The notes: a model not told the origin generated them from the letters alone. DNA of 64,000 nucleotides from a virus (IMGVR_UViG_3300020577_006051:26245-90244), one strand, 5' to 3'. Counted from the stretch's first letter, positions 2,509 through 29,913 are shown. A program made the numbers and translations.

Positions 2509-2523
2509 TGACACTGCTACGCC
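2509..2523 (+). promoter_or_regulatory. conserved intergenic box TGACACTGCTACGCC (copy 1)
   Basis: 15/16 match to the recurring 16-mer; followed 27 nt later by CTATATAG. Confidence 0.5.
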
Positions 2524-2601
2524 CGAGCACGGACCCGAGTCTATATAGTTATGTGAGCGACGAACGGTTGCTCAGAGTTCTGGATCCGATTCGAATCTAG
2601 T

Positions 2602-3177
2602 TTGTCAGTGAGTGTTAGTAACAACAACGTTTTAGGAGGTTCTATGACTACAAATACTACGGCTACTTCGACTATGACTCAAAAGGAAGCGGTTTACCAA
2701 GCGGTAACAACGATCCTCGACGAGAACGGCATCAAGTTCGAAGACGGTAACGATGTACGCGAAGTGTTGACGAGCGAGCTACGCGCGCAAGTTAAAGAGG
2801 TCCTGATCCAATCCTTCCTAGCTGGAATGGTTGCTATCGACGGCCAACGCGACGAGAAGTACATCAAGAGCTACGTGCCTGGCTTGATTACTAACCACAT
2901 CAGCAAGGATAAGCGTCTGAACGGTGGCGACAAGTACCAAGCTAAGAACCCTGGCTCACGCTTCGGCAGCAGCGACGACCAACTGAAAGCGCTCAAAGCT
3001 CTCAAGACTCAGCTCACTATGAACAACGCTGACGCAGAGGCTATCGCTGAGATTGAGCAACATATCGCTAACCGAACTAACGAGTTGAAAGCAGCTAAGC
3101 CAGTCAAAGCGAAGACAGTGAAAGTGAACTTCGAAGACCTTCCAGCTGAGTTGCAAGCTAAGTACAGCAACCAGTAA
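2602..3177 (+). CDS. conserved phage protein, family A (paralog of 16106..16705)
   Basis: C-terminus KVNFEDLPAELQAKYSNQ shared with the 16106 gene; likely start near 2644 (MTTNTT...). Confidence 0.7.
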   Translation: MSVSVSNNNVLGGSMTTNTTATSTMTQKEAVYQAVTTILDENGIKFEDGNDVREVLTSELRAQVKEVLIQSFLAGMVAIDGQRDEKYIKSYVPGLITNHISKDKRLNGGDKYQAKNPGSRFGSSDDQLKALKALKTQLTMNNADAEAIAEIEQHIANRTNELKAAKPVKAKTVKVNFEDLPAELQAKYSNQ

Positions 3178-3207
3178 TCAGACCCACTAAGATAAGCCCA
3201 CCACAAA

Positions 3208-3240
3208 GAGCCTGGCGCAAAGCCGGGCTCGACCCGTTTC
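3208..3240 (+). terminator. candidate terminator hairpin
   Basis: 9-bp stem GAGCCTGGC/GCCGGGCTC (one G-U) with GCAAA loop, weak T-tract. Confidence 0.35.
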
Positions 3241-3246
3241 AGCTAA

Positions 3247-3262
3247 CTGACACTGCTACGCC
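3247..3262 (+). promoter_or_regulatory. conserved intergenic box CTGACACTGCTACGCC (copy 2)
   Basis: exact 16-mer; GAGACTATATAGCTAT downstream mirrors copy 1. Confidence 0.5.
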
Positions 3263-3306
3263 GGATGGCCGAGACTATATAGCTATACCACTACAACGGA
3301 GGCACT

Positions 3307-3444
3307 ATGACTGTCAAAGAACTAATCGACATACTGAAACTCTCTGACCCGAATGCAAAGATAGTGTTCCCAGACGGACTGCCGCTGGTCTCGACCGAGG
3401 ACTACGGTGACGAAGTTGTCCTGTCTGATGCAGAACCAGAATAA
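3307..3444 (+). CDS. hypothetical small protein (45 aa)
   Basis: unlisted ORF MTVKELIDILKL...; AAGGAG-type SD. Confidence 0.35.
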   Translation: MTVKELIDILKLSDPNAKIVFPDGLPLVSTEDYGDEVVLSDAEPE

Positions 3445-3453
3445 GGAGCTGAT

Positions 3454-3609
3454 ATGTTTACTCTCGAAGAATTAGCACTGATAAGTGAGCAGCTGAAACT
3501 AGCAGTACGAAACAGAGAGCTGTACGGCGAGTGGAACGACGTCGCTAAGTCGGCCATCAAGAAGTGCAACGAGCTGTCCGAATCTACCAACGAGCAGGAG
3601 GAATCATGA
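3454..3609 (+). CDS. hypothetical small protein (51 aa)
   Basis: unlisted ORF; stop overlaps next start (ATGA). Confidence 0.35.
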   Translation: MFTLEELALISEQLKLAVRNRELYGEWNDVAKSAIKKCNELSESTNEQEES

Positions 3610-3851
3610 GACATATCACTAGAGCACAAATCATCCGTGAGCTAACTGAGATGTGGATGGACGCTCACCCTGATGAGATAGCAGCTGCGATCGCAGACAG
3701 CAACTGTTCGCCTAACTACAGCAAGTGGACAGACAGAGACCTGATCGACCTATATGAAGTGCTGACAGACACTAGACTGACGCCTGTGTTTCAAGTAGCT
3801 GAGTTTCAGCACTCTGACCCAGCCAGCGAAGGCATCAAGGCAGCTCGATGA
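3606..3851 (+). CDS. hypothetical protein
   Basis: in frame with listed ORF 3564..3851; internal ATG at 3606 gives ATGA coupling and an AGGAGG SD. Confidence 0.5.
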   Translation: MRHITRAQIIRELTEMWMDAHPDEIAAAIADSNCSPNYSKWTDRDLIDLYEVLTDTRLTPVFQVAEFQHSDPASEGIKAAR

Positions 3852-4177
3852 CTATTCGCTACTTCATCCACTTGCTCAACCGCTTCCTCCATCTTAAAGA
3901 TAGGGAACAGATTGAGCTATACTACCTACTGACCAATATGAAACGAAACCGAGACGACAATAGTTCGCCAACCAACAAAAAGGAATTCAATATGAGTAAG
4001 ATTAGTGATAAACAAATTAAAGAAATCGTTTTTTCGATAGCAGAAGAAATAGAAGAAATCATTGCCCAAGGGTTTGATGATGTTCTTGATGAATTGTCTG
4101 GGGATGAATTGTCTGAGGATGAAGCTGATGAGCTATACGAGCGTTACCACTCTATTCTTATTAAAGAACTCAGCTAA
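3848..4177 (+). CDS. hypothetical acidic protein
   Basis: 109-aa ORF, ATGA overlap with upstream gene, D/E-rich C-terminus. Confidence 0.5.
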   Translation: MTIRYFIHLLNRFLHLKDREQIELYYLLTNMKRNRDDNSSPTNKKEFNMSKISDKQIKEIVFSIAEEIEEIIAQGFDDVLDELSGDELSEDEADELYERYHSILIKELS

Positions 4178-4228
4178 AGAAAAGTTCTGTTCCGATTTCT
4201 AGTGAGACACGCCAATCCCATCCGACAA

Positions 4229-4243
4229 CTGACACTGCTACGC
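4229..4243 (+). promoter_or_regulatory. conserved intergenic box CTGACACTGCTACGC (copy 3)
   Basis: 15/16 match; upstream of small ORF 4288..4443. Confidence 0.45.
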
Positions 4244-4287
4244 ACAGCGCCCCGACCCTAGCCATACACATACGGAGGATACTACCA

Positions 4288-4443
4288 ATGCAGACTATCC
4301 TATATCTCAACACCAAGCAGACCGAAGTTCTAGACAAGGTCATCGAAGACCGACTCGCCCTACACAACGAACAAGAAGTAGCCCAACCAGATTCCCCGGA
4401 AGTATTAATCCTAAAAGAAATTCTCAGACAGCTGAGATCTTAA
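4288..4443 (+). CDS. hypothetical small protein (51 aa)
   Basis: unlisted ORF with GGAGG SD. Confidence 0.35.
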   Translation: MQTILYLNTKQTEVLDKVIEDRLALHNEQEVAQPDSPEVLILKEILRQLRS

Positions 4444-4850
4444 GATTGACGTTCATTCCAGCTTTTTAACCGATGACAGTTAGCGCACAAGGTCTGTAGG
4501 TTGGACTCATCGTTGTTGCTGTGGTTGCCATCAATATGGTCAACGTCCAACTGACATCTATGAACTGGGATAAAACCACAAAGCTCACAATGTTCTTTAC
4601 GATGGATAAGATAAGGCTTCTTGGCTGCTAACTTTTTAATGGGATTATTTCTAGCCCAAGTTTTAACCTTTTCAGATGAGCAGGACCGACAATAACTATT
4701 AAGAGAATCCTTAGAACGTTTATTCTTATGGAATTCAGTACAGGGCTTATCAATTTTACATCTAGCACAAGTCTTCATACATAGATTATACAAAAAGACC
4801 CTAGGGAAAGAGACGAAACCTCGCCGTGGGCGTTGCCCCAGCCCCAACAA
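4440..4850 (-). CDS. HNH homing endonuclease (paralog of 1260..1679)
   Basis: LCGFIPVHRCQLDVDHIDGNHSNNDESNLQTLCANCHRLKSW aligns residue-by-residue with the 1260 gene; opposite strand. Confidence 0.8.
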   Translation of the reverse strand: MLGLGQRPRRGFVSFPRVFLYNLCMKTCARCKIDKPCTEFHKNKRSKDSLNSYCRSCSSEKVKTWARNNPIKKLAAKKPYLIHRKEHCELCGFIPVHRCQLDVDHIDGNHSNNDESNLQTLCANCHRLKSWNERQS

Positions 4851-5058
4851 TGGTCAGAGTGGGCCTAGCAATATCTGCAACTTAGAATAAGTGTCCTGGA
4901 CCGAATATATCCCTCCCTAGGATACATACAAGCATTAGAACTTGTCTCCTTAGAATTGATCTTAATGAGTTCTAGGTATGTATTTGAGTGATTAAGAATA
5001 GTATTGATATTTCTTTTTAAGATAGCCCGAAGGTAGGGATTTACGTAAGTGAAATTGA

Positions 5059-5247
5059 TTGGAGGTAGCCATGCATAAGAAAGCCTTCTGCTGTAAAGAA
5101 CTGCATGCCAAAACTCTTGGTGATGATCCGACTATAAGAGTAGATGAAAAAGGTCAGATGTCATTTATAGTGAAGACCGGCATCTTAGCTGGTGGTAGCA
5201 CTGTATTTCGTTTCTGTCCGTGGTGTGGAAAGAAGAATAAGAAATAA
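5059..5247 (+). CDS. small zinc-ribbon protein
   Basis: CC...H early and CPWCGKK at C-terminus. Confidence 0.4.
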   Translation: MEVAMHKKAFCCKELHAKTLGDDPTIRVDEKGQMSFIVKTGILAGGSTVFRFCPWCGKKNKK

Positions 5248-5269
5248 GCTATTTTTTAGGAGTAATGGT

Positions 5270-5734
5270 ATGGATAATCGAGTTGCAGAATGTGAATATA
5301 AGTTTAAGAACGGTGATAAGGTCTACGTTCAGAACTCTTATGATTTAGATGTAGCCGTTGTAGTTACTTTCGGCAAAGGCAAGTCCATCAAAGTTCGTTA
5401 TCCTAACGGCTATGAGAGTCGAGTTCTTAAGACCAAGATTGCTCATCCGGATGAGAAAATAGCTGTGGTTGAGACTATTACTCTAGCTGGGAAATACTCT
5501 TACTGGCTGGATCGTAGTCACTATACTAAGTATCACTTCGCAGCTAAGAACTGGCCGTTTCAGGTCCGAGTCCATGAGGATTCACCTGGTGTGGAGAACG
5601 TGGCCATCAACCAATCGACCTTCAGCGTCAGAAGTTTAGCAAATCGAGAAGTTAGTCGCCAAGGCGTCAAAGACGTTCTATCTGGTATGAGTGGCGGAAT
5701 GGCTGACTATCTTAAATCTGCTTTTAAGTTATGA
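5270..5734 (+). CDS. hypothetical protein
   Basis: in frame with listed 5192..5734; ATG at 5270 has an AGGAG SD. Confidence 0.5.
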   Translation: MDNRVAECEYKFKNGDKVYVQNSYDLDVAVVVTFGKGKSIKVRYPNGYESRVLKTKIAHPDEKIAVVETITLAGKYSYWLDRSHYTKYHFAAKNWPFQVRVHEDSPGVENVAINQSTFSVRSLANREVSRQGVKDVLSGMSGGMADYLKSAFKL

Positions 5735-5870
5735 GGTAAGGTATGACACCTAGTTTACTTATTGATTGGACATTCGCGATTGTTGGAAGTGTAGGAATAA
5801 TATTCGTGCTGGGTGCTTTTATCTATGCTACTATTAAATTCCTAAAATGTCCATGACTTTGAGGTGAACT

Positions 5871-6164
5871 ATGAAACGTAGACTAGGAATCGATGACTGT
5901 CGCGAGCTTAGTCATTGCTCTGTTCTATGTCGCAACTACTCTGACGGCATCAAAGCCCTCGAGACCATGGGTCCTTGGGATGAGCTGTTCTTGGACCATG
6001 ACCTAGCATCCTATGTAGACGGAGTCGAGAAGACCGGCTATGATGTGATGCTATTCCTGGAGCAGAACCCGAACTTATTACCTGGTGAGATTATTCTGGT
6101 CACATCTAATCCGGTTGGTCGCCAACGCATGCAAGTCGTCATCGATCGACTATATAAGAAATGA
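5871..6164 (+). CDS. hypothetical protein
   Basis: 97-aa ORF. Confidence 0.5.
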   Translation: MKRRLGIDDCRELSHCSVLCRNYSDGIKALETMGPWDELFLDHDLASYVDGVEKTGYDVMLFLEQNPNLLPGEIILVTSNPVGRQRMQVVIDRLYKK

Positions 6165-6171
6165 GGTAACT

Positions 6172-6468
6172 GTGAGTAGACTATTTGATCTATCAATGGC
6201 TATCTATGAAGGTCTCAACGATGGTCGCAACGTTGACTTGATGGTTAAAGAACTGTTCTCTCAGCTAGATAAACTATACCCAGATCCAACTCCTGAGGAC
6301 TATGAGAGTGCTTGCGACTACTATGCTAACGGTGAATCGTTTGGTTCTCGAGACTTAGAATCCAAGTTGAAACTGTTCGCCGAATCAATCTATTACTGGT
6401 CAGATCGATGGTGCTACGAACGTTATTTTACAGCGCAACGTTACTGGGAAGACATCAAAGGAGATTGA
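6172..6468 (+). CDS. hypothetical protein
   Basis: in frame with listed 6085..6468; GTG at 6172 after GAGGT SD avoids a long overlap. Confidence 0.45.
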   Translation: MSRLFDLSMAIYEGLNDGRNVDLMVKELFSQLDKLYPDPTPEDYESACDYYANGESFGSRDLESKLKLFAESIYYWSDRWCYERYFTAQRYWEDIKGD

Positions 6469-6807
6469 ATGTCTATTCTATTAGCTATCGATGTATCTGG
6501 CTCTTGCAAGAATATTAAGCTCAGAACAAAGGCTATGGAAACACTCAGGAATCTGAATCGTGTATCGACTGTTGATGTAGTTCTATTTGACAGTGAACTA
6601 GTAAAGTTTATTTCTTCTGCTCACGCTAAGGAAAATGAGGTTGCTTATGCTTTGTTGTCTAGATATGGTGGCGGTGGAACATTACTAGAACCTGTTTGCG
6701 AGATGATGGGTTTAGCTAGTTATCATAATTGCTATGTGGTGACTGACAGCTGCCTCAATGTTCCATCCGACCTTAAAGACACAATAAGATTAGTGATTGT
6801 TGACTGA
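6469..6807 (+). CDS. hypothetical protein
   Basis: 112-aa ORF. Confidence 0.5.
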   Translation: MSILLAIDVSGSCKNIKLRTKAMETLRNLNRVSTVDVVLFDSELVKFISSAHAKENEVAYALLSRYGGGGTLLEPVCEMMGLASYHNCYVVTDSCLNVPSDLKDTIRLVIVD

Positions 6808-6824
6808 GATTGTGAGGTAGCACG

Positions 6825-7124
6825 ATGACAATAACATCGTCTGATTGTAAGAAATATTTTACTGCCATATTAAAGGCTAATAAATCAGTATACGATGCTT
6901 ATGCTAATCAAGATGATGATCCAAGAACCTATAGTAGCATCTGTGCGAGCAGCAAATGGAAACGAAATGCTAAAAATAAAATCCAAGATGGATATGAAAG
7001 AATCTTCGACCATGAAGATGCTTTTGGCCAAGACATTACAGTATTTGTCTATACAAAAGACAATGATACGGTGATAGATAAAGTTAGAATAGCTGTAAGA
7101 AACAATCCCGATTTTATGTTCTAA
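6825..7124 (+). CDS. hypothetical protein
   Basis: 99-aa ORF. Confidence 0.5.
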   Translation: MTITSSDCKKYFTAILKANKSVYDAYANQDDDPRTYSSICASSKWKRNAKNKIQDGYERIFDHEDAFGQDITVFVYTKDNDTVIDKVRIAVRNNPDFMF

Positions 7125-7976: not shown

Positions 7977-8385
7977 GTTGGCATTTCACCATACGGAAGT
8001 TGAATCATCTGTGTTAGAAGCCTATACAGATTATCTAATGGAGAACGTACTAGCGGAGCCACAATGATTAAACATGATACAGACAACTCATATAAGCTAG
8101 TAAAATTATTATGGTTGCTGCGACTTTCTAGTCTTGTTGAAGATGGTGTATTGCATGAGGATATTAGACAGTGGTTTACGGATAGACACGTTCAATATGA
8201 TACTCGCCATAGACGAGGTAACAGCTAACAATGTCAAAAGTAACTGATAAAAATGGTTGGCGATGTGATCGAAACTTGATGAGCTTTTTAAAAGCTTTGA
8301 TGATTATGAATATCGATCGTGATTCAGCTAATAAATGGCTAGGCAGTAACTACGATCATAAAAGAATTTAATCCGACACTAATAA

Positions 8386-9876: not shown

Positions 9877-10167
9877 ATGTTTGATCAATCAACAATTGAC
9901 GAAGCGGCATCTTTATATTCTAAAGGTATTAAAGGTGGATGGAATAAGGTAGCAGAAGAGTTAACTGCTAAAGGTCATAAACCTTGGCATGGTACCTATA
10001 TTCATGGTCAAGCAATCTGCAGTGAAGTTTTAGCAGATCCACGGTATGCTCATCTCAGAAAGAATCGTCGCTTTGGAACTGGTGCACGCGATCTCATTGA
10101 GAAAGCTATACTAAACTCTGGTTATACACAAGCAGACGCTGACGCTATCCTTAAGAATATTCCATAA
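9877..10167 (+). CDS. hypothetical protein
   Basis: 96-aa ORF with AAGGAG SD. Confidence 0.5.
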   Translation: MFDQSTIDEAASLYSKGIKGGWNKVAEELTAKGHKPWHGTYIHGQAICSEVLADPRYAHLRKNRRFGTGARDLIEKAILNSGYTQADADAILKNIP

Positions 10168-10192
10168 GTTGACACAATATCAGCTTGCGTAG

Positions 10193-10208
10193 CTGACACT
10201 GCTACGCC
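10193..10208 (+). promoter_or_regulatory. conserved intergenic box CTGACACTGCTACGCC (copy 4)
   Basis: exact 16-mer between 9877..10167 and the GT2 gene; TTGACA-like hexamer 20 nt upstream. Confidence 0.5.
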
Positions 10209-10262
10209 CATCCGACACTATGTTAAGTACAATAAGATATCGAATATATTAGAGGTATCATT

Positions 10263-11507
10263 GTGATTGCTGTAATCTTAGCTGTATTTCATACATACTA
10301 TTTCTTTAGAGCAATCATGTGGATGTTCCTATGGTTGTCCTCATATGCTATGGGTAAAGTAACAGTTCGTTTGCATACACCAAATAAGCGATACTATCTG
10401 CTTTGTCCAATGTACAAAGAATCACAGATGGTTGAGCAGTTAGTCAACAACCTAAACAAGATTCAATATCCTCGCGATTTGCTACATGTTTGTCTTCTAC
10501 TAGAGCCAGATGATTTAAATACAATTGAAGCTGCTAAACAAATTACAGGTAGATTCGATGATTTAAAAGTCCATGTAATGATAGTTCCAGAATACTACCC
10601 AGGTCCGAAGACTAAACCCCGAGCAATGAATTACGCTCTAGAACAGATCAAAGATAACGATGGGTATGTTGTCGTCTACGATGCCGAAGATGAACCAGAG
10701 ATAGATCAGCTGTTGAAAGCTGTCACATGCTTCGACCGCAATCCTCAGATACATTGCTATCAAGCTGCATTAAACTATAAGAACTTCAAAGAGAACTGGC
10801 TTAGTCGCATGTTTACTATGGAGTATTCGTTCTGGTTCGACAATCTCATATTGGGGTTAGCAACAATCGAAGCTCCTATCCCATTAGGAGGAACATCTAA
10901 TCACTTTCGTATCCAATCGTTGCGTGATGTTGGTGGGTGGGATTCGTTCAATGTTACCGAAGACTGTGAACTTGGTCTACGCATGTACAAGAACAATATG
11001 AAAGTTGGAGTACTTAATTCTACTACCTGGGAAGAAGCATGTTGTCAGCCGTGGAACTGGATCAAGCAGAGAACTAGGTGGAGTATGGGATACATGTACA
11101 CTTGGGCTACTGTTAGTTCACCTAAGAACTGGCGAGGTCTACTAACATGGCACCTATTTGTATTAGGAACTCCGTTGGTTGCCTTGATAAATGTGTTTAT
11201 GCTAAGTGTGTTTGGCTTGTGGGTAACTGGTCACGATGTTAGTACGTTCTTTCCGACATTATTCTATTATAAGTTAGGAATATTATCGTTCGTAGTGGGT
11301 AATGGAACGTGCATCTTGTTGCCTGCTATTGCGTTCTGGGCTCGAGGTCACAAGAAGCGTGCATTACTATGTTTAACGTTACCGATTTATTGGTTATTGC
11401 ATTCAATCGCTGCGTATCGTGCTCTGTATCAGTATATTAAAAATCCCCATAAGTGGGAAAAGACTCAGCACGGTTTATCTAAACGAGATGATAGGGAGAA
11501 ACAATGA
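10263..11507 (+). CDS. membrane processive family-2 glycosyltransferase (PgaC/cellulose-synthase-like)
   Basis: N-terminal TMs, DAEDEPE (DxD), TED, QRTRWSMG (QxxRW) and C-terminal TM bundle. Confidence 0.8.
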   Translation: MIAVILAVFHTYYFFRAIMWMFLWLSSYAMGKVTVRLHTPNKRYYLLCPMYKESQMVEQLVNNLNKIQYPRDLLHVCLLLEPDDLNTIEAAKQITGRFDDLKVHVMIVPEYYPGPKTKPRAMNYALEQIKDNDGYVVVYDAEDEPEIDQLLKAVTCFDRNPQIHCYQAALNYKNFKENWLSRMFTMEYSFWFDNLILGLATIEAPIPLGGTSNHFRIQSLRDVGGWDSFNVTEDCELGLRMYKNNMKVGVLNSTTWEEACCQPWNWIKQRTRWSMGYMYTWATVSSPKNWRGLLTWHLFVLGTPLVALINVFMLSVFGLWVTGHDVSTFFPTLFYYKLGILSFVVGNGTCILLPAIAFWARGHKKRALLCLTLPIYWLLHSIAAYRALYQYIKNPHKWEKTQHGLSKRDDREKQ

Positions 11508-15100: not shown

Positions 15101-15574
15101 ATGCAGGACATCAGCAAGAAGAAACTAAGCATACTGATGGATCTGATAAGAACAAAACTATCAGACATAACTGAACTACATTTCGAATATAAGTCTCTAA
15201 AAGAACTTTTGCTCTTCTTTGAAGCTGAATATGATAAGAATCCAGCACCAAAGACACCAAAGAAGTCAACTATTGAGAAAGCTAGATGGTTAAAATTTAG
15301 AGATCAGTATCTGGCTCAGTTTACAGTATTGAGTTGTCATTATTGTAATGTGTCTCTAAAGTCTGATGCGCCAAGGATGCCATGTAAGACTAAAGATCAT
15401 ATCTTTAAGCGCAACAAATCTATTCCTAAGAATGAGCAGGCTACTATCGATCATGTGGTTCCACTCAGTAAAGGTGGAGCAGAATTTGATCCAGCTAACT
15501 TTGTAGTGGCTTGTCACAAATGCAATGGCAACAAAGCAGACAAAAGTTTAGAAGAATTTAAAGGTGACAAATGA
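15101..15574 (+). CDS. HNH endonuclease
   Basis: CHYC ... DHVVPLSKGGAEFDPANFVVACHKCNGNKAD HNH/Zn motif. Confidence 0.8.
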   Translation: MQDISKKKLSILMDLIRTKLSDITELHFEYKSLKELLLFFEAEYDKNPAPKTPKKSTIEKARWLKFRDQYLAQFTVLSCHYCNVSLKSDAPRMPCKTKDHIFKRNKSIPKNEQATIDHVVPLSKGGAEFDPANFVVACHKCNGNKADKSLEEFKGDK

Positions 15575-16105: not shown

Positions 16106-16705
16106 TTGCACGTGTCGGCGGTGGTATTTAATCCGAGACTAGTTAATCACGAACCAATGTTGGTTCATTTTTATGGGAGGTCGTTTATGACCAAAGTTAC
16201 ACAACGTGAAGCAGTTTTCACGGCAGTGAAGTCGGTTCTTACGCAAGCAGGAGTTAAGTTTGAAGAAGGTCAGAATGTTTCTGAGCTTATGACAGCTGAG
16301 CTTCGTGCACAAGTTAATGCTATCCTCGTTGAAGGCTTCAAAGCAAGCACGATCGAGTTGAAAGATACAGCAACTAATCGTGCTAAGTTAGAAGATGAAA
16401 CAGAATTAAAGAAGTATGTGTCCGGTCTTCAAAGCAACTGGTTGAACAAAGACAGTCGCTTGAATGGTGCAACTAAGTATGTTCCAAAGAATCCAGGCTC
16501 GCGTACAGGTTCGCAAGACCCACAGATCGCAGCTCTTCGTGGTCTCATGAAAACTAAAACAGAAGCAGATGAGATCGCTGAAATTCAAGGTTACATCGAC
16601 GAGCGTTTGGCTCAACTTGCTACTGCAAAAGTAAAAACAAAGCAAGTGAAAGTAAACTTCAGCGATTTACCTAAAGAGCTTCAAGCTAAGTACTCGAACC
16701 AGTAA
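16106..16705 (+). CDS. conserved phage protein, family A (paralog of 2602..3177)
   Basis: collinear with the 2602 gene; ends KVNFSDLPKELQAKYSNQ; likely start MTKVTQ at 16187. Confidence 0.7.
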   Translation: MHVSAVVFNPRLVNHEPMLVHFYGRSFMTKVTQREAVFTAVKSVLTQAGVKFEEGQNVSELMTAELRAQVNAILVEGFKASTIELKDTATNRAKLEDETELKKYVSGLQSNWLNKDSRLNGATKYVPKNPGSRTGSQDPQIAALRGLMKTKTEADEIAEIQGYIDERLAQLATAKVKTKQVKVNFSDLPKELQAKYSNQ

Positions 16706-16814
16706 GATCCATAAACTCCCGCCTTCCCGCCTAGTCAGTTGGTCCATTAAGTCTACGAACCCGCAATGGGTATAATTCCCACCGACCAACTGACATTCCT
16801 CTTCGTAGGAAATA

Positions 16815-17384
16815 ATGTATACTTATCCAAAATCCGGTATTTATAAAATTCTTAATAAGAAAAACAATAAAATTTATATTGGTTCTTCTGTTGATATTTA
16901 TGCAAGATGGGTCACACATAAACATCTTTTAAATAAAAACAAACATAGTTCTACACATCTGCAGAATGCATGGAATCTATATGGTGAACAAGAATTTGAA
17001 TTCACTATTGTGGAAGAAGTTGAAGTTGAAAATTTAATATTTCGTGAACAGTATTGGTTAGACTTATTAAAGACTTACACTCAAGAATGTGGGTATAATA
17101 TTTTAGAAAAAGCTGGTACAACTTTAGGTTTTAAACACACAGATGAAGCCAAAAGAAAAATAAGTGAACAATCTAAAGGTAAGTTAAAACCTAGAAATAA
17201 ACCAAAGAAACAAAAAGTAATAAAAGTTCGTGGAGCTAAATTAATTGGTAGAAAATATTCTGAAGAGCATAAAAGAAAAATAAGTCAAGCTAATAAGAAT
17301 AGAATTCTATCTGAAGAACATAAAGCAAAACTTAGAAAACCTAAAAATAAGGTCAAAAATGAAACAGATCATAGTAATTCGTAA
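16815..17384 (+). CDS. GIY-YIG homing endonuclease
   Basis: GIYKILNKKNNKIYIGSS ... R ... E ... N motifs; K-rich DNA-binding tail; AT-rich. Confidence 0.85.
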   Translation: MYTYPKSGIYKILNKKNNKIYIGSSVDIYARWVTHKHLLNKNKHSSTHLQNAWNLYGEQEFEFTIVEEVEVENLIFREQYWLDLLKTYTQECGYNILEKAGTTLGFKHTDEAKRKISEQSKGKLKPRNKPKKQKVIKVRGAKLIGRKYSEEHKRKISQANKNRILSEEHKAKLRKPKNKVKNETDHSNS

Positions 17385-17715
17385 GGATTTGCATATGAGA
17401 CGCGGAAAAGAAATCGCACAGGGTGCTCATGCATCCAATGCGGTTTTAATTGATTCTGTTAAGGCAGGAAAGATGGATTCTGACATCAAAGAATGGATAA
17501 TGAACGGATCAAAGAAGGTTTGTGTCCAGGTCTCATCAGAAGCAGAACTCCTCAAGGTGTATCAAGATGCATGTAAGGCAGGGCTATCAGCACACATCAT
17601 CAGGGATGCCGGTCATACTGAGTTTAATGGTGTACCTACGCTTACTGCATGTGCCATCGGTCCCAACGAAGACAGCGATATCGATGCGGTCACCGGCAGC
17701 TTGCAACTCTACTGA
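17359..17715 (+). CDS. peptidyl-tRNA hydrolase, PTH2 family
   Basis: MKQIIVIRKDLHMRRGKEIAQGAHAS and DAGHTEF...IGP...VTGSLQLY match the PTH2 signature end to end. Confidence 0.9.
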   Translation: MKQIIVIRKDLHMRRGKEIAQGAHASNAVLIDSVKAGKMDSDIKEWIMNGSKKVCVQVSSEAELLKVYQDACKAGLSAHIIRDAGHTEFNGVPTLTACAIGPNEDSDIDAVTGSLQLY

Positions 17716-17727
17716 CACTGCTACGCC
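17712..17727 (+). promoter_or_regulatory. conserved intergenic box CTGACACTGCTACGCC (copy 5)
   Basis: exact 16-mer; its TGA is the stop codon of the PTH2 gene. Confidence 0.5.
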
Positions 17728-17760
17728 CGACCGATCATAGGTCTGGCTAACGGAGAACAC

Positions 17761-18024
17761 ATGAGCGAATTAGAATATAAGAGAATCGCCGCAAATACTA
17801 AACTTATAAGAATCATCACACTCATTGCCGAGAAGAATCCTGCTCTGCGATTCTCTCAGATCGTAATGAACTTTGGGTTTGTAACAGTTAATCAAGGTGA
17901 TGACTATGATCCAAGGACCGTAGAGTACGATCCATGGGTGGAACCTCACGTCGTCTTAAAGCGAGTCATTAAATACCTTAAAGAGATTAGTTGGGATGAT
18001 ATCGTAAACGAGGTTAGCGAATGA
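17761..18024 (+). CDS. hypothetical protein
   Basis: 87-aa ORF. Confidence 0.5.
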   Translation: MSELEYKRIAANTKLIRIITLIAEKNPALRFSQIVMNFGFVTVNQGDDYDPRTVEYDPWVEPHVVLKRVIKYLKEISWDDIVNEVSE

Positions 18025-19205: not shown

Positions 19206-20078
19206 ATGCCGAAAATACTTATGTTGCGCGGATTGCCAGGTTCTGGAAAAAGCACTTTGGCAAGAAAACTAGTTGAAGAAAAGAGTTTTGTGAGGGTCAA
19301 TAAAGATGATCTTCGTGCTATGGCTCATAACTCTAAACATACTCCAAAACGTGAAGAATTCATTCTAACTCTGAGAGACATGATAATTTCTTCTGCCTTA
19401 GGTGAAGGTAAGAATGTGGTTGTAGATGATACAAACTTACACCCTAAACATGAGAAACGACTGCGTGAACTAGCAGATGCCCTTCACTGCGACTTTGAGG
19501 AAGACAATTCGTTGTTGCTAGTTCCAATCGAACAGTGTATAGAGCAAGATCTTAAGCGATTGAATTCTGTTGGTGAGCAGGTAATTCGTAAGATGCATAA
19601 AGAAGCTGTAAAGCATTATCCACACTTATTGCCTAAACCAGCTAAAGCACAACAACCTTATGTCGCAAAACCAGGCACACCAAAGACTATTATTTGTGAT
19701 TTAGATGGAACATTGGCATTGATGAATGGTAGAGATCCATTTGATGCTTCAACCTGTGAGAATGATTTGCTGAATAAGGTTGTGTACGACATAATCTCTG
19801 AATATCCACATAATGTCATATTTGTTAGTGGTCGAAGTGATAAATATAGAGAACAAACTAAACGTTGGTTAGGTAAATATGGTTTAGCTGGTTTTCCACT
19901 CTTTATGCGTAAAGAAAATGACTTTCGTAAAGATAGCATCGTGAAGCTTGAGATATTTGACAATCATATCCGAGACCATTACGATGTATCCTTTGTTCTA
20001 GACGATCGCAATCAAGTGGTTGAGATGTGGCGATCTCTAGGTTTAACTTGTTTGCAGGTTGCAGATGGAAATTTTTAA
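19206..20078 (+). CDS. pnk: polynucleotide 5'-kinase/3'-phosphatase (T4 PseT-like)
   Basis: Walker A GLPGSGKST; HAD motif ICDLDGTLA; C-terminus QVVEMWRSLGLTCLQVADGNF near-identical to T4 Pnk. Confidence 0.95.
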   Translation: MPKILMLRGLPGSGKSTLARKLVEEKSFVRVNKDDLRAMAHNSKHTPKREEFILTLRDMIISSALGEGKNVVVDDTNLHPKHEKRLRELADALHCDFEEDNSLLLVPIEQCIEQDLKRLNSVGEQVIRKMHKEAVKHYPHLLPKPAKAQQPYVAKPGTPKTIICDLDGTLALMNGRDPFDASTCENDLLNKVVYDIISEYPHNVIFVSGRSDKYREQTKRWLGKYGLAGFPLFMRKENDFRKDSIVKLEIFDNHIRDHYDVSFVLDDRNQVVEMWRSLGLTCLQVADGNF

Positions 20079-23749: not shown

Positions 23750-24865
23750 ATGACTAATAAGTTTACAGTTAAAGTTGTTAAAATAGAATCAATTACAGAA
23801 ATCCCTGGTGCATTAAACTTAGAAATAGCCAATATTGCAGGTTGGCAGTGTGTAGTTAGAAAGAATTCACACCCTGTAGGAAGTCTAGCTATCTACATCC
23901 CAATTGATTCAGTGCTTCCCCATGAAGTAGAGTCCAAGTTGTTTGGACCTGACTCTAAAGTTAAATTACACAAGTCTCGTGTTAAGTCCATTAAGCTACG
24001 TGGTGCTGTGTCGCAGGGTATGTTAGCGCCATGCGAAGAGTTTAATGTTCCTGCTGAGGAAGGTTATGATTGCACTGAAGAACTTAAGATCACTAAGTAC
24101 GAACCACCTGAAGCTCCAGCAACTATGTCTGGTGGTCTACAAGTTAAGAAACTTAAGAAGAACCCACACTTCCCAGAATACGGTGGACTAGACAACTTCA
24201 AGAACTACCCTAAACTCTTTGAAGAAGGTGAGCAAGTTGTCATCACTGAGAAGATCCACGGAACAAACTTCCGTTGTGGTTGGGTTAAAGCTGCACCAGA
24301 TACTTTCTTCAAGCGAGTGCTACAATTCTTCCATTTATTACCTAAGTATGAGTTCGTGTATGGCTCAAATCGTGTTCAACTACAGAACAAGATGATCCAC
24401 AAAGGTTACTACGAGAAGAACGTTTATGCTGAAGCTGTTAAGAATTACAACCTTAAAGAGAACATGAAAGCATTCCCTGGAACACTCATCTATGGTGAGA
24501 TCTATGGTGATGGTATCCAGAAAGGATACAATTACGGTTGTGCTACTGGAGTACAGAAACTCGTTGCATTCGATGTGCACCAAGAAGATGATCAAGGCAA
24601 CAAGACATTCTTGAACCATGCTGTTGCTAAACGCTTCATCAAAGGTTTGGGCCTTGATATGGTTCCTGTACTTTATGAAGGTCCATACGATGCTAAAAAA
24701 GCTAAAGAATTGACTGTCGGTAATTCTGTTCTTGCCCCGACCCAAAAGGTGCGTGAAGGGGTTGTAATTCGCCCCGCTGAAGAAACTAAAGTATACATCG
24801 GTCGTAAAGTTTTGAAGTTAATTTCCGATGAATATCTGTTAGGAGACCAGTCGGACTTTCATTGA
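23750..24865 (+). CDS. ATP-dependent RNA ligase, Rnl2/Rnl5-like
   Basis: motif I TEKIHGTNF (same as T4 Rnl2 EKIHGTNF); ~165-aa N-terminal extension; no Rnl2 C-domain. Confidence 0.75.
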   Translation: MTNKFTVKVVKIESITEIPGALNLEIANIAGWQCVVRKNSHPVGSLAIYIPIDSVLPHEVESKLFGPDSKVKLHKSRVKSIKLRGAVSQGMLAPCEEFNVPAEEGYDCTEELKITKYEPPEAPATMSGGLQVKKLKKNPHFPEYGGLDNFKNYPKLFEEGEQVVITEKIHGTNFRCGWVKAAPDTFFKRVLQFFHLLPKYEFVYGSNRVQLQNKMIHKGYYEKNVYAEAVKNYNLKENMKAFPGTLIYGEIYGDGIQKGYNYGCATGVQKLVAFDVHQEDDQGNKTFLNHAVAKRFIKGLGLDMVPVLYEGPYDAKKAKELTVGNSVLAPTQKVREGVVIRPAEETKVYIGRKVLKLISDEYLLGDQSDFH

Positions 24866-25688: not shown

Positions 25689-25724
25689 CCCGATTCAATA
25701 TAGTAATGTTCATAAGGAGGATCT

Positions 25725-25928
25725 ATGACAGTTATCGCTGTTGATTTTACAAAGAAAGCTAAGAAAAAAGAAGAAACACAAGATGATATCTTAGACCCTG
25801 TAAAGACAGAAACAGTAGAAACCTCATTCGAAGAAATTGCTCGTAAAAACAAAGAGCGCGCTGATCGCAAAGAAGAAGAGCGAAAGAAGGCAAACAAAGA
25901 TGTCCTCAGATCTTACAGAATTAAGTAA
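25725..25928 (+). CDS. hypothetical K/E-rich protein
   Basis: 67-aa ORF with AGGAGG SD. Confidence 0.45.
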   Translation: MTVIAVDFTKKAKKKEETQDDILDPVKTETVETSFEEIARKNKERADRKEEERKKANKDVLRSYRIK

Positions 25929-26056
25929 CATTGACATAATGATCTTTAGAAATTCTGTAATAACTAGTTTCTTAGTTAAGTTGCAGGTCGTAAAGTATGT
26001 CATGATACCGTCACCGTACCCAATTCGTGGCTTTGTTAGTGAAATTAGAGGCTACT

Positions 26057-26233
26057 ATGAAAGCGATAGATAGTCCAGAGATGGATAAATTAGTTTATCT
26101 ATTAAAATGTTTAGACATTAAAGCAACTAGAAATGTATTTATCTTGAACGGCACATCGTACGTAGCTCCTCGTTTTTATATGAATCAATCAACGTACGAT
26201 AGCTTAGTTAAAGCTTTTGGGAAAACAAAATGA
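26057..26233 (+). CDS. hypothetical protein
   Basis: in frame with listed 26027..26233; ATG at 26057. Confidence 0.4.
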   Translation: MKAIDSPEMDKLVYLLKCLDIKATRNVFILNGTSYVAPRFYMNQSTYDSLVKAFGKTK

Positions 26234-26460
26234 AAATTATTATGTTAGCTGTTTATGCTTTTGCTTTTATAGTTTTCGCTCTATCTAACAAAGGATTCTT
26301 TGCCTTTGTAGCGTTCATGTTGTTCCTAATGGTTGGAACACTAATTGGTACTTTAGGTGGTAAGAATAAGTCAACTGAAGATAATAATCGTGACTCGCAA
26401 AATCTAGAAGATCTGGCTACGATTGAACGAGCAAGATACTTCAGAAAGCCCTTAAACTGA
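26230..26460 (+). CDS. small membrane protein
   Basis: two TM helices. Confidence 0.45.
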   Translation: MKIIMLAVYAFAFIVFALSNKGFFAFVAFMLFLMVGTLIGTLGGKNKSTEDNNRDSQNLEDLATIERARYFRKPLN

Positions 26461-26593
26461 TGTTTAGATTAAATAATGATTTAAATAAATTGCTAGAAGA
26501 GATGAACGAAATTTCTAAAACAATAGATAAATCATTCAAGACATTAAAGTTGGTTCACTTTCTAAAGAAATTAAAATTAAAGGCACTTTACTA

Positions 26594-26785
26594 ATGTTCA
26601 GTCAACATTCGTTTAAACACTCATATGCTTGCAATAAAATCGATGAAGACATCGAAGATGAAAGGGCGAAGGCCAGATTAAAGAACTTTGTTACTTTGCT
26701 TATTCATGGTTATTATAAAAGGGTCGTATTTTCAACACAAATAGGCCCAAACGATCCGATTCAAATTATCTTTAAGAAAGACTGA
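26594..26785 (+). CDS. hypothetical protein
   Basis: 63-aa ORF. Confidence 0.35.
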   Translation: MFSQHSFKHSYACNKIDEDIEDERAKARLKNFVTLLIHGYYKRVVFSTQIGPNDPIQIIFKKD

Positions 26786-26809
26786 ACAAGTCGATCTTAG
26801 GAGGATTAA

Positions 26810-27529
26810 ATGTCTAAGTTTATCTCGATTCTTACCCACACGTCTATCGCAGCAGCAGTGGGATTTGGAGCATTCAAAGTAACCACTACTTACAACGGTC
26901 ATGCTAAGTCAGCAGAGATCTCCAAACTAGAGAACAATATCGCACTTCTAAAGTCTCAAGAGGAAGCAGATCGTCAGTTAGGTCAGTACGTGATCAACAT
27001 GATGTATCAAACATCTGCTGCAACTAAACTATCTGATGCTAAGAAACTCACTCTTGCTCGCTCAATCGTTCGCGTAGCTAACGATGTGTTCGAGACCACA
27101 GAGAACAAGAAGGCGTTCGTTGCACTATTAGCAATTGAGTCTGAGTTTCAACGCAATGCTCAAAGTCCTACAGGACCTAAAGGTCTCTCGCAGGTAGCCA
27201 AAGCTGCCTTCAAAGAAGGTCTCGAGAGTTGTGGGATCACGAATGTTAAGGAAGATGATGTTTGGGAAACAGACATCAATCTCTACGCAGGTGCGTGCTA
27301 CTTCCGCTCTTTACTTGATAAACATAATGGCGACCACTATATCGCGATCGTAGGTTATAACCAAGGTCCTTACAGCAAAGATGTTAAGTCATATGCTAAG
27401 CATGGCCGTGTTGAGAATGTAGAAGCTCTTAAGTATATCGCTCGCTTCACGTTCCTCAAACGCACAGTAACAGACGCTAAGAAACCTAATGTTGTGGCAA
27501 TGGATAAAGTAGAAGTTAAAGTTAAATGA
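26810..27529 (+). CDS. membrane-anchored lytic transglycosylase (SLT domain)
   Basis: N-terminal TM; LLAIESEFQRNAQSPTGPKGLSQV ... YNQG SLT motifs. Confidence 0.7.
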   Translation: MSKFISILTHTSIAAAVGFGAFKVTTTYNGHAKSAEISKLENNIALLKSQEEADRQLGQYVINMMYQTSAATKLSDAKKLTLARSIVRVANDVFETTENKKAFVALLAIESEFQRNAQSPTGPKGLSQVAKAAFKEGLESCGITNVKEDDVWETDINLYAGACYFRSLLDKHNGDHYIAIVGYNQGPYSKDVKSYAKHGRVENVEALKYIARFTFLKRTVTDAKKPNVVAMDKVEVKVK

Positions 27530-27696
27530 ATATATTTGAGATGACTACTCAAGATGAAATAGAGTTAAAAACATTCAGATTAACAGTTAACTTAAATAAG
27601 TTCTTGCAAAAACTTCAGTTAAAGACACAAGTGTACGGAAGTCCCAGCGGAAAAGGTCTCGAAGCTCTCCTAATGAAGGAGTATTTAAGGTTATGA
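27526..27696 (+). CDS. hypothetical small protein (56 aa)
   Basis: unlisted ORF ATGA-coupled to the SLT gene. Confidence 0.35.
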   Translation: MNIFEMTTQDEIELKTFRLTVNLNKFLQKLQLKTQVYGSPSGKGLEALLMKEYLRL

Positions 27697-27813
27697 AACA
27701 ATTCTATGTTGAATCTACAGATCTAGATGCATTTATTATCATTGGCCAAACATACCCATCTGCGACAATTGCTATTAAAAAACAGATTGGTAAAACAGTA
27801 GTAGTAACGGTTA

Positions 27814-28002
27814 TTGAAACATCAGATCTCGAGGACGAGAATGACTGACTTCACATCTGTTATGAACAGAGATCCTGGATCTCAGTGGATCTGGGAGCGC
27901 GATATCACAACCGTAAAACCAGAAGATAGTATGGGATGGGATATGGCATTCATTGATCTACTTCGTTACCAGATTATCTCTGGAAGATTAAAGGACACAT
28001 AA
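27814..28002 (+). CDS. hypothetical protein
   Basis: 62-aa ORF (probable start 27841). Confidence 0.4.
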   Translation: MKHQISRTRMTDFTSVMNRDPGSQWIWERDITTVKPEDSMGWDMAFIDLLRYQIISGRLKDT

Positions 28003-28003
28003 C

Positions 28004-28219
28004 ATGATTGGATTCATAGTTGGTTGTGCAATTGTAGCTTATCTATTTGGAGTCTTGATATCGTACGGTATATTAAAACCACTGGTATCGACGAAGAATG
28101 GTCCCATTATTGTTTATTTCTCATTCATTGGTCCAGTATTCTTATTAGGGTTTTTCATTGGGCTTCCATTGTGGGTGCTCATATCAACGATGTTTGGCAT
28201 AGAAAAGGTGCAATCATGA
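28004..28219 (+). CDS. small 2-TM membrane protein (holin-like topology)
   Basis: 71 aa, two hydrophobic helices. Confidence 0.45.
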   Translation: MIGFIVGCAIVAYLFGVLISYGILKPLVSTKNGPIIVYFSFIGPVFLLGFFIGLPLWVLISTMFGIEKVQS

Positions 28220-28458
28220 AAAGTTTAGTATTGGCTTTAGGCTTGTTATCCAGTGTAGCGTTTGCTCAAGTCGAAGTTCTTCCTACAGATAAGGAACAAA
28301 CTTGCGTTATCGTAGTTCGCGTTCTAACAGATGCTCAAGGCAAAATTAAAGCAACTGGACAACCAGGTTTAGACTGCGAAACATTTCGCGCTAAGTTGAA
28401 TCCAGCTCCAAAAGCTAAACCGACAGCTGTTCCACGCGTAGACAAATCGAAGCAGTAA
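28216..28458 (+). CDS. small secreted protein
   Basis: in frame with listed 28024..28458; ATG at 28216 gives signal peptide MKSLVLALGLLSSVAFAQ. Confidence 0.5.
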   Translation: MKSLVLALGLLSSVAFAQVEVLPTDKEQTCVIVVRVLTDAQGKIKATGQPGLDCETFRAKLNPAPKAKPTAVPRVDKSKQ

Positions 28459-28459
28459 T

Positions 28460-28966
28460 ATGCTGAACAAGAAGCACGTTCTAAACAACGGTAAGTCAAT
28501 AGATATTCGCGCTTTGTTTCCGACAAAGGATGTGAGTTCTGTTTCGTACTACGAAGTTGACTACGTTGGTGGTAACGTGCTTATCAGCTTTTACGATGAA
28601 TATGGCCAACAGATCAGTTCTTTACCAGATAAAGAGAAAGTTTATGTCACAGAAAGTACGGCACTATATTGTAGCTCAGTTACTACGGCTTGCTTTGATC
28701 GTGCAAAAAGTAACGTCGCAGCTCTCTTTCCTAATATAGATATCGAGCAGATTAAGTATCTAGAATTTGACAAATATAAAGATATCAAATCTAAGATAGA
28801 TGAAGAATATAGACAACAGTTATGTGCGCTATCTGTTTCTGACATGGAACTCATCATCAAGTGCCACGATAAAGGTAAGATCAACCGCGCGGATGTAACT
28901 ATTAGGGCACTAAAAGACGAGTTGGCTCGACGTTATATCTTTACGGAGGCAAATAAAGATGTTTAA
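28460..28966 (+). CDS. hypothetical protein
   Basis: 168-aa ORF. Confidence 0.5.
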   Translation: MLNKKHVLNNGKSIDIRALFPTKDVSSVSYYEVDYVGGNVLISFYDEYGQQISSLPDKEKVYVTESTALYCSSVTTACFDRAKSNVAALFPNIDIEQIKYLEFDKYKDIKSKIDEEYRQQLCALSVSDMELIIKCHDKGKINRADVTIRALKDELARRYIFTEANKDV

Positions 28967-29444
28967 ATTATTGTTAGCACCGATGTGCTTCATGCTTACC
29001 AGCTGCGGAACAACACCCAAAGATTTAATAGAACGTCGATTCCTTCCAGACCATCCAACAGACAAGAAGATTGATCCAGAATTCCAGAGTCACGTAGATC
29101 GCTTCTCCAAGTATCTTGGTCGCAAAGTAGAGATCCGTATTCAGTTCGAAGAGTTAGACGATGAGACAGTTGGTTTGTGTGCTATATACAGCGACGGCTA
29201 CCGCGAGATAGAGATCGACAGAGAATATTGGGACGATGCAGAAGAGTCCGTACGTGATGAACTTATCTTTCATGAGCTTGGTCACTGTATTTTAGATCTA
29301 GACCACGATGAGACATTAATCAACAAAGGTAACTACTACCAAATCCCCAACAGCATCATGTATCCTTTTACTTTTGGATACACATCTTACTATAAAGAAT
29401 TCATTGAAGAGTATCACCAAGAGCTTTTCACTCATGGAAAATAA
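28959..29444 (+). CDS. lipoprotein with HExxH zinc-metallopeptidase motif
   Basis: lipobox FMLTSCG; FHELGHCILDLDHDE. Confidence 0.6.
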   Translation: MFKLLLAPMCFMLTSCGTTPKDLIERRFLPDHPTDKKIDPEFQSHVDRFSKYLGRKVEIRIQFEELDDETVGLCAIYSDGYREIEIDREYWDDAEESVRDELIFHELGHCILDLDHDETLINKGNYYQIPNSIMYPFTFGYTSYYKEFIEEYHQELFTHGK

Positions 29445-29913
29445 GACTGACACTGCTTGGCTAGCGAGCGGCGAAAACCCAAATTTTCTTAAATATTGTT
29501 GGCTTATCTATACACGACATATATTATTTGAAGAATCTAATCGAAATGATGAGCAGCTAAAGTATCTAAAGCAGATAGAATACGACACCTTACAAAAGAA
29601 ACAACTGCCCGCTAAATATATTGGAATGAAACCTAGTGCAATAAAGTTTTTAAAACTCGAATTAGTTAAAAAGAATAAAGACATATTTCAGTATTTAATG
29701 AAACTAATGAAAGACAATGAAGAATTTATTAGGGCAGCAGATAACAATCTAGCGTATAGAGTTGCTTACGAAAAAGAAGACATATGGTTAGTACGACGAG
29801 CTATGGCTTCAATAGACTTACCATCAAAGATAAGTCCATCCGATATTAAAAAATATCATGATGAGTATGTCGCTCAACTGTGCATCGAAGAGATGCTGAA
29901 GGAACAAACATGA
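29434..29913 (+). CDS. hypothetical protein
   Basis: in frame with listed 29374..29913; ATG at 29434 overlaps the upstream stop. Confidence 0.45.
   Translation: MENKTDTAWLASGENPNFLKYCWLIYTRHILFEESNRNDEQLKYLKQIEYDTLQKKQLPAKYIGMKPSAIKFLKLELVKKNKDIFQYLMKLMKDNEEFIRAADNNLAYRVAYEKEDIWLVRRAMASIDLPSKISPSDIKKYHDEYVAQLCIEEMLKEQT
29447..29461 (+). promoter_or_regulatory. degenerate copy of the conserved box (CTGACACTGCTtggc)
   Basis: 11/16 match right after the stop of 28959..29444. Confidence 0.3.

Follow-up and report, generated by a model that had tools for sequence, protein, structure and literature searches.

Introduction

PeSL/PmSL cassettes of T4-like phages carry a stem-loop, then either an early promoter or a Mot box with a -10 element, and finally a Shine-Dalgarno sequence and a start codon (Arbiol 2010; Comeau 2014, PMC4122927). 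They are repeated in hyperplastic regions, and degraded half-elements are found near insertions and deletions (PMC4122927). Here we analysed a stretch of viral DNA of 64,000 nucleotides (IMGVR_UViG_3300020577_006051:26245-90244; hereafter the window), in which a 16-mer, CTGACACTGCTACGCC, recurs between genes as part of an arrangement for which PeSL/PmSL is the closest published architecture. We consider it somewhat probable that a large lineage of uncultured phages uses this 16-mer as the upstream module of a composite cassette of terminator and promoter, in which it would be bound by a sequence-specific factor.

The two arrangements follow the same order of stem-loop, promoter, Shine-Dalgarno sequence and start codon, both are repeated between small variable open reading frames (ORFs), and degraded half-elements occur in both. 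PmSL has a regulator box and a -10 without a -35, as the arrangement described here would have, and downstream of the 16-mer, as in PeSL/PmSL, lie a Shine-Dalgarno sequence and start codon, variable ORFs and, judged against an imperfect control, nearby break points of homology. In contrast to PeSL/PmSL, the putative promoter module here has no -35 at 16-18 bp and its spacing varies: the distance from the 16-mer to a downstream -10-like box changes in steps of ~10 bp, whereas the PeSL/PmSL distance is fixed, and the box itself has a CCGA extension. Moreover, the 16-mer is invariant and unrelated to the TTGACA or the Mot box TGCTT of PeSL/PmSL. The window does encode T4-style accessory genes (endonuclease V (Pyr_excise), endonuclease VII, a polynucleotide kinase-phosphatase (PNKP), RNA ligase and DNA ligase), and no core T4 replication, transcription or structural genes were seen among the window ORFs scanned.

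Several other systems invite comparison. T4 middle promoters are reportedly built from a MotA box at -30 and a sigma-70 -10 element, with appropriation of sigma by MotA and AsiA; the Mot box, with TGCTT at about -34 to -31, is 9 bp long and lies 12 ± 1 bp from the -10. CRP at class I and class II promoters and the monomeric proteins MarA, SoxS and Rob use oriented or asymmetric sites that act from about -42 and beyond on one helix face. A T7/SP6-type promoter is a ~23-bp block (-17 to +6; ATTTAGGTGACACTATAG in SP6) whose upstream part is AT-rich and which is paired with a cognate polymerase gene, and T7-group phage promoters diverge along with their polymerases. The SAS of the SAS/ESAS pair in Cluster K mycobacteriophages is said to overlap the ribosome-binding site, 3-8 bp before the start codon.

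A 16-mer recurs between genes and is oriented with them

Scanning the window for CTGACACTGCTACGCC with up to 3 mismatches returned 6 matches, starting at 2508, 3247, 4229, 10193, 17712 and 29447, all of them on the + strand, against 0.23 expected from 100 shuffles. Five have at most 1 mismatch and are likewise all on the + strand: copy 1 at 2508-2523 (GTGACACTGCTACGCC, 1 mismatch), copy 2 at 3247-3262 (exact), copy 3 at 4229-4244 (CTGACACTGCTACGCA, 1 mismatch), copy 4 at 10193-10208 (exact) and copy 5 at 17712-17727 (exact). The window has 7 exact copies of the 12-mer core TGACACTGCTAC, where ~0.008 are expected: one in each of these five good copies, one at 55086-55097 (+) and one at 37507-37518 (-). 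An initial annotation, made from the sequence, had reported the recurring 16-mer and the excess of its core over chance; both were borne out, and to the five good copies that it had listed we add the minus-strand core, which it had overlooked.

The five good copies lie 0-70 nt downstream of a stop codon and 33-121 nt upstream of the next start. Copy 1 begins 27 nt past the stop of 2332-2481, and 121 nt further on is a gene of a protein family that we call X (see below); copy 3 precedes an ATG at 4288; copy 4 is upstream of a family-2 glycosyltransferase gene (GTG at 10263); and copy 5 precedes an ATG at 17761. As described previously, copy 5 supplies the stop codon (TGA, 17713-17715) of the ORF for the peptidyl-tRNA hydrolase PTH2 (17359-17715), and copies 1 and 2 have in common an extended downstream element, GAG[T/A]CTATATAG[T/C]TAT (GAGnCTATATAGyTAT).

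All seven 12-mer cores are oriented as their downstream gene. The sole minus-strand core is no exception: it is 22 nt upstream of the TTG start (37484) of nrdA (35697-37484, -), which belongs to a small number of minus-strand genes amid mostly rightward ones. Because the minus-strand core precedes a minus-strand gene, orientation tracks the gene and not the genome strand. At this core, TGC-TACATT is readable as an extended -10, and nrdA looks like an imported gene that was supplied with a local signal. Its best phage matches are in Rhodobacter and Loktanella phages, at ~37% identity.

The remaining sites are less regular. The core at 55086-55097 lies within the 3' end of gene 54548-55159, with the next start (55170) 73 nt on; the initial annotation had placed it correctly at a gene's 3' end and had called it degenerate, although its core is exact. 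The doubtful copy at 29447-29462 (+) has 3 mismatches and could be chance or a relic; it falls within a gene whose coding sequence begins with the ATG at 29434. The placement after a stop and before a start, proposed for every copy, holds for the five good copies and fails here. A weak copy proposed near 16790 (16782-16804, +; CCGACCAACTGACAttcctcttcg), directly before a GIY-YIG endonuclease gene (16815-17384), has only CTGACA in common with the motif. We read it as a half-site because its left flank, CCGACCAA, resembles the CCGACAA of copy 3, and it is probably a degraded copy or a recombination junction. SAS/ESAS and the 16-mer are alike in being repeated, asymmetric, gene-oriented sequences before a subset of phage gene starts, whereas the 16-mer lies 33-121 nt upstream of the start in the window, with the -10-like box between them.

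The 16-mer is a phage signal conserved in a deeply diverged lineage

An exact scan of IMG/VR for the 16-mer found 66 stretches, many of them on contigs of 147-177 kb with several copies apiece, and the copies were restricted to a 20-35-kb part of each relative contig. When 134 copies (first set) were aligned, the 16 conserved bases had sharp edges and the flanks were unconserved. The placement seen in the window recurred in 164 unique relative copies, with medians of 47 nt from the end of the upstream ORF to the motif and of 83 nt from the motif to a ribosome-binding site with a start codon; only 12 of these copies lay deep within an ORF of the same strand. Each genome has 3-8 candidate promoters bearing the 16-mer, grouped at the start of a rightward block of small genes and around X genes.

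For an unbiased sample, we picked 77 IMG/VR loci by the X gene alone. The motif (≤2 mismatches) was present in 67 of the 77, always on the strand of X and 0 times on the opposite strand. Variation of the 16-mer in these loci occurred only at positions 0, 1, 7 and 15, and the 13 bases GACAC[T/C]GCTACGC were unchanged even where X was only 30-36% identical to the X of the window. Lineage-specific variants at positions 0, 1 and 7 have CT, CC, GT or TT ahead of GACAC, or T7C.

In 596 Gb of bacterial and archaeal genomes we found 103 stretches with the 16-mer, compared to ~280 expected by chance, and the sole record with multiple copies was a metagenome-assembled genome (MAG) contig of 146,658 bp, the same size as an IMG/VR phage contig; it is a phage contig binned into a MAG. 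Since the frequency in prokaryotes is below chance and the lone multi-copy record is a phage, the 16-mer is not a host regulon site, but a phage signal; the multiple copies in bacterial genomes that would mark the regulon of a host transcription factor were not seen. The phage group occurs mainly in IMG/VR contigs and environmental assemblies. Megablast of 10 kb of the window against 50,697 GenBank phage records gave no match, and the 16-mer string had no match in the literature text searched. The best matches of the RNA ligase, NrdA and two ATPases were distant and taxonomically scattered, so neither the lineage nor the host of the window phage could be placed; strong GGAGG ribosome-binding sites argue against a Bacteroidota host, although one contig was binned into a Cytophagales MAG.

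A CCGA-TATA box lies downstream at helically phased distances

A second box, C[C/T]GA-N3-[T/G]ATA[T/A]A, lies downstream of 112 of the 134 copies of the first set and, by a stricter pattern, of 106 of 172 unique copies. Strict boxes directly before ribosome-binding sites or starts numbered 181, compared to 59 in shuffles, and 62 of the 181 were accompanied by the 16-mer. Within the window, no 4-mer is more enriched than CCGA at 20-65 nt before the starts of + strand genes (34 of 125 genes; 8.6 expected), and the CCGA box has a sharp peak 29-35 nt ahead of the ATG. We found no conserved -35 region at plain boxes. Nor was the box found before the minus-strand genes left of, and upstream of, the window; the box therefore marks one gene class, and it is probably the promoter class of the rightward gene block. 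In the general form CCGA(A/T)..A/T-rich, the box is seen on the + strand 29-60 nt before many starts, for example at 8373, 11846, 14429, 40040, 44996, 49006, 49568, 50820, 56647 and 61890.

These counts bear on what the initial annotation had made of the motif. Its TATATA downstream of copies 1 and 2 is present, and belongs to this much commoner second box. It had argued that the motif is not a plain sigma-70 promoter, and indeed CTGACA precedes TATATA by 28 bp at copy 1 and by 23 bp at copy 2. We found no TTGACA-like and TATAAT-like hexamers at 16-18 bp, and sigma-70-type promoters in 1-20 kb numbered 40 where shuffles gave 58. Its category of promoter or regulatory box still applies, as the motif is intergenic, gene-oriented and above chance; the core promoter is more likely to be the downstream box, and the 16-mer is therefore probably an add-on to a few promoters rather than the promoter itself.

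In the window, the box of copy 1 (CCGAGTCTATATA, 2535-2547, +) lies 11 nt after the 16-mer, with a second box-like site, CCGATTCGAATCT, at 2586-2598 (+). That of copy 2 (CCGAGACTATATA, 3269-3281, +) lies 6 nt after the 16-mer and is followed by GGAGG at 3298 and the ATG at 3308; the transcript start is predicted near 3288. Weak boxes follow copy 3 (CCGACCCTAGCCA, 4252-4264, +), copy 4 (CCGACACTATGTT, 10212-10224, +) and copy 5 (CCGATCATAGGTC, 17731-17743, +). Ribosome-binding sites hardly ever began less than 10-12 nt past the invariant A of the box and piled up at 12 and 15-16 nt. These distances fit a start ~11 nt after the box A, as for a -10-type element with A at -11 and minimal leaders, and do not fit a start directly after the TATA.

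The spacing from 16-mer to box ranges from 3 to ~30 nt in relatives, and in the window it is -1 or 3 (two overlapping CCGA sites at copy 5), 3, 6, 7 and 11 nt. In 97 dereplicated copies it peaked at 5-6, 14-15 and 24 nt, with the strongest periodicity at 10 bp (Rayleigh R 0.415, p<0.0005 against a smoothed null). Such spacings would put the centre of the 16-mer at about -33, -42 and -52, on one helix face. Phasing by ~10 bp leads us to expect a DNA-bound partner of RNA polymerase, and not an RNA signal or independent tandem promoters.

In the cassette that we propose, the order would be an RNA-type hairpin (in relatives), the 16-mer, a spacer, the second box, the ribosome-binding site and the start codon. 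C[C/T]GA-N3-[T/G]ATA[T/A]A would serve as a -35-less core promoter of -10 type, which may also work alone at many genes; its CCGA part would span roughly -19 to -16 and its TATA part roughly -12 to -7. In each genome, 3-8 promoters would have the 16-mer upstream of the box on the same helix face, and a factor on it, probably phage-encoded, would contact RNA polymerase and set promoter strength or timing, whether by activation or by repression.

This arrangement resembles T4 middle promoters, where a phage box likewise takes the place of a -35 upstream of a -10, and at a spacing of 5-6 nt the TGCT of the 16-mer would fall at ~-34 to -31, the place of the Mot box TGCTT in T4. In contrast to T4, the spacing here is not fixed, the commonest class lies one helical turn further upstream, and the element is 16 bp rather than 9; Pfam gave no MotA or AsiA hit for the window ORFs that were scanned, which comprised part of the small ORFs. 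Promoters of the CRP or MarA type also have an oriented, helically phased upstream site, whereas the 16-mer is not above chance in host genomes and is far more invariant.

Alternatively, the 16-mer itself might be the compact promoter of a phage RNA polymerase, either of the single-subunit T7/SP6 type or of another, with starts at or just past its 3' end and with the CCGA-TATA box as a separate tandem promoter for another form of polymerase. The contiguous, asymmetric block of 13-16 nt with sharp edges is as in phage-polymerase promoters, a purine stands at the second base past the 16-mer in 76% of copies, and the lack of sigma-70-type enrichment in 1-20 kb would suit this explanation. Copy 1 and GTGACAC variants match the SP6 promoter over GTGACACT (GGTGACACT in copy 1), 8-9 bases in all, and the CCGA-N3-CTATA box recalls CGACTCACTATA of T7. 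The copies at nrdA and 55086 are box-less, yet that at nrdA is 22 nt from the start. On the other side, the block is 16 bp long with unconserved flanks and lacks the AT-rich -17 to -13 part of T7/SP6 promoters; there is no conserved AT-rich stretch upstream, where a GC-rich hairpin usually lies instead. The positions of ribosome-binding sites fit a start ~11 nt after the box A and not right after the TATA, phasing of ~10 bp with the box would be unexpected for independent promoters, and the block is invariant across a deep lineage, unlike T7-group promoters. Among the scanned window ORFs and ten large ORFs scanned from relatives there was no polymerase gene, the PF00940 type included. We therefore regard a phage-polymerase promoter as unlikely.

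Other candidates for the 16-mer were tried and rejected. Checked by hand against the 16-mer, neither a sigma-54 site (GG-N10-GC) nor a -35/-10 pair of the Caulobacter type fits, as the key dinucleotides or the spacings disagree. A palindrome of NtcA or CRP type is excluded, as the 16-mer has no dyad symmetry, and it does not resemble the boxA of nut sites (GCUCUUUAACAA).

RNA-type hairpins precede the 16-mer in relatives

Folds directly upstream of the 16-mer in relatives had a mean of -14.0 kcal/mol, compared to -7.0 kcal/mol in controls, and the fold was below -12 kcal/mol in 56% of copies but only 10% of controls, which parallels the stem-loop of PeSL/PmSL. The hairpins end mostly 0-3 nt from the 16-mer, a T-run is rare, and several of the listed relative copies have loops of UUCG or GNRA type. 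We read them as RNA hairpins of the preceding transcript. In the window, a GC-rich hairpin with a GCAAA loop (3208-3230, +) lies past the stop of the X gene and 16 nt before copy 2; its RNA fold is -23.2 kcal/mol (z -2.9).

Hairpin and 16-mer together could instead be an RNA signal in read-through transcripts, such as a processing or 3'-end site that leaves the mRNA protected by the hairpin, or a site for an RNA-binding protein. The RNA-like loops of several listed copies speak for this, and the hairpin sits within 0-3 nt of the 16-mer, a tighter coupling than that between 16-mer and box; strict strand orientation suits an RNA element, and invariance this extreme could stem from base pairing or from a specific partner that binds RNA. 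Against it, box phasing of ~10 bp argues for the geometry of double-stranded DNA, a nearby hairpin is present at one of the five window copies, and copy 5 overlaps a stop codon without having a hairpin. We saw no complementary partner in the window, where the lone minus-strand match is a gene-oriented copy. There was no match to an Rfam family: the Rfam 15 covariance models gave none at gathering score across the window and only chance-level hits (E ≥0.27) in 1600-4400. We judge an RNA signal very unlikely as the main role of the element.

A tRNA scan of the window found none. We also rejected a hairpin promoter for an N4-type virion polymerase: in N4 such promoters have a 5-7-bp stem, a 3-nt loop and conserved bases, and are used by a giant virion polymerase, whereas the hairpins here are longer and variable, with loops of at least 4 nt, and lie upstream of the conserved block, and the window has no giant ORF. 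At copy 4 alone, an upstream GCGTAGC pairs with the GCTACGC of the 16-mer in a 7-bp stem (10186-10207); the fold of 10150-10208 is -16.7 kcal/mol (z -3.8), and this self-pairing could mask the 16-mer in single-stranded form.

A novel protein family accompanies the 16-mer in a plastic region

The X gene of the window (2644-3177, +; 177 aa) lies between copies 1 and 2, and a paralogue is encoded at 16187-16705 (+). X proteins are ~160-180 aa long and have invariant KNPGSR and KD.RLNG motifs; there are >600 metagenomic homologues, none of them functionally annotated. Comparison with Pfam, PHROG and PDB found no relative, and a tblastn search of GenBank phages with the X protein gave no match. The structure model is confident and all-helical, and a fold search with it gave no informative match. 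X homologues were present in 42 of the 66 motif loci, and related contigs carry 1-3 X genes, often flanked by the 16-mer. Within the families near the motif, X occurred in 120 loci and any other in at most 24, leaving aside two groups of antisense ORFs inside X genes, which are spurious. X is a novel multi-copy family linked to the 16-mer. With X alone widely shared near the motif, the surroundings resemble a plastic region in which small ORFs vary.

The block might instead be mainly a site of recombination or mobility, with a secondary promoter role, either as short homology for the shuffling of cassettes in a hyperplastic region or as the target of the homing endonucleases crowded there. The dominance of X near the motif (120 loci against ≤24 for others) would fit, as would the half-site directly ahead of the GIY-YIG endonuclease gene and the three copies inside a GC-richer island at 2.0-4.4 kb; shuffling also has a precedent in PeSL (PMC4122927). 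Break points of homology lay within 60 nt of a copy in 37% of cases, compared to 6% for random positions, a control drawn from random positions and not from intergenic positions in general. The break points, the half-site and the GC-richer island also agree with the likeness to PeSL/PmSL. Sixteen bp would be short for homologous exchange, and a recombination site leaves unexplained the orientation with genes, the phased spacing to the box and selection on exactly 13-16 bases with free flanks. Recombination would be compatible with the terminator-promoter cassette as a side effect; as the main role of the block we hold it to be highly improbable.

The island itself (2000-4400) has a GC content of 0.44-0.51, compared to 0.29-0.43 nearby, and holds the first X gene, three 16-mer copies and several tiny ORFs. 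It is possibly a recently imported cassette.

Points that weigh against the proposed cassette, and what it might mean

Several observations count against a terminator-promoter cassette whose 16-mer is bound by a specific factor. The promoter function and the start site are deduced from geometry. Comparison of ~88 window ORFs with Pfam and PHROG revealed neither a sigma factor nor an RNA polymerase, and no MotA/AsiA-like or helix-turn-helix protein. Sites bound by proteins are seldom as strictly kept as these 13 bases, which are nearly invariant in phages that have diverged deeply. Within the window, the boxes at copies 3-5 are weak, the cores at 37507 (-) and 55086 have no CCGA box downstream, and a clear hairpin is found at copy 2 only (one of five copies). 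The sharp distance of 29-35 nt from box to ATG would also suit an RNA element linked to translation, and the spacing classes could derive in part from shared descent despite dereplication.

A bolder version of the bound-factor cassette, which we offer tentatively and would sooner doubt than expect, is that the 16-mer is the operator of a new, lineage-wide phage transcription-factor system with a role like that of MotA/AsiA, helically phased on -35-less CCGA-TATA promoters. The X family could then be that factor or its main target. If so, the near-invariance of 13 bases at ~30% protein identity would point to an unusual mode of recognition. Should the terminator-promoter cassette as such prove right, transcription signals would be defined for widespread, large, uncultured phages without a relative among the GenBank phage records searched. 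These signals would be two, a general -35-less box and a rarer upstream element for a special class of promoters. They would provide a handle for annotating operons, for seeking the cognate DNA-binding factor and for recognising the lineage by the 13-mer GACACYGCTACGC together with an X gene, and terminator-promoter cassettes in plastic early regions would extend past the classical T4-like phages.

Other features of the window and of related loci

A conserved non-coding stretch of ~100 nt lies at 1715-1830 (..TATAGGAAAAA..GGTACC..AAATAGGGGTTCCCTT..GCTGAGGnTAGCGGGC..). It occurs once per genome, directly ahead of a CCGA box right where the rightward block opens, with counterparts in the related loci L017 (~8100-8215), L034 (~1918-2035), L056 (~5525-5640), L172 (~2200-2315) and L028 (~9900-10020). 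A structured RNA was rejected for this stretch, which has no covariation and no Rfam match, and its partial complementarity to the 16-mer is not kept in relatives.

Genes of homing-endonuclease type are encoded at 1260-1679 (+), 4440-4850 (-), 15101-15574 (+), 16815-17384 (+) and 38158-39396 (+). The set comprises three HNH genes, one GIY-YIG/NUMOD3 gene (right after the half-site) and an HNH_3 domain in the ThyX ORF. Genes with a flavour of RNA repair at 5871-6164, 17359-17715, 19206-20078 and 23750-24865 comprise a cREC_REC receiver domain, PTH2, the polynucleotide kinase-phosphatase and the RNA ligase. Accessory genes that are unusual for a phage lie at 26810-27529, 31161-32381, 32599-32997, 40072-42045, 47643-48575 (-), 49612-52265 and 53322-53786; they include an SLT lytic transglycosylase domain, a SET-domain protein, SPFH/Band 7, PQ-loop, two ClpP-like proteases, a trypsin-like protease, a MoxR-type ATPase with a DUF2201 metallopeptidase/VWA partner, and MgtC. 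Finally, in relatives and upstream of the window, a conserved NUDIX-domain protein of ~500 aa is encoded by the opposite strand, immediately upstream of the block rich in the motif, as in L171 (2121-3620, -), L060 (8423-10009), L022 (3871-5418, -) and L017 (963-2495, -).

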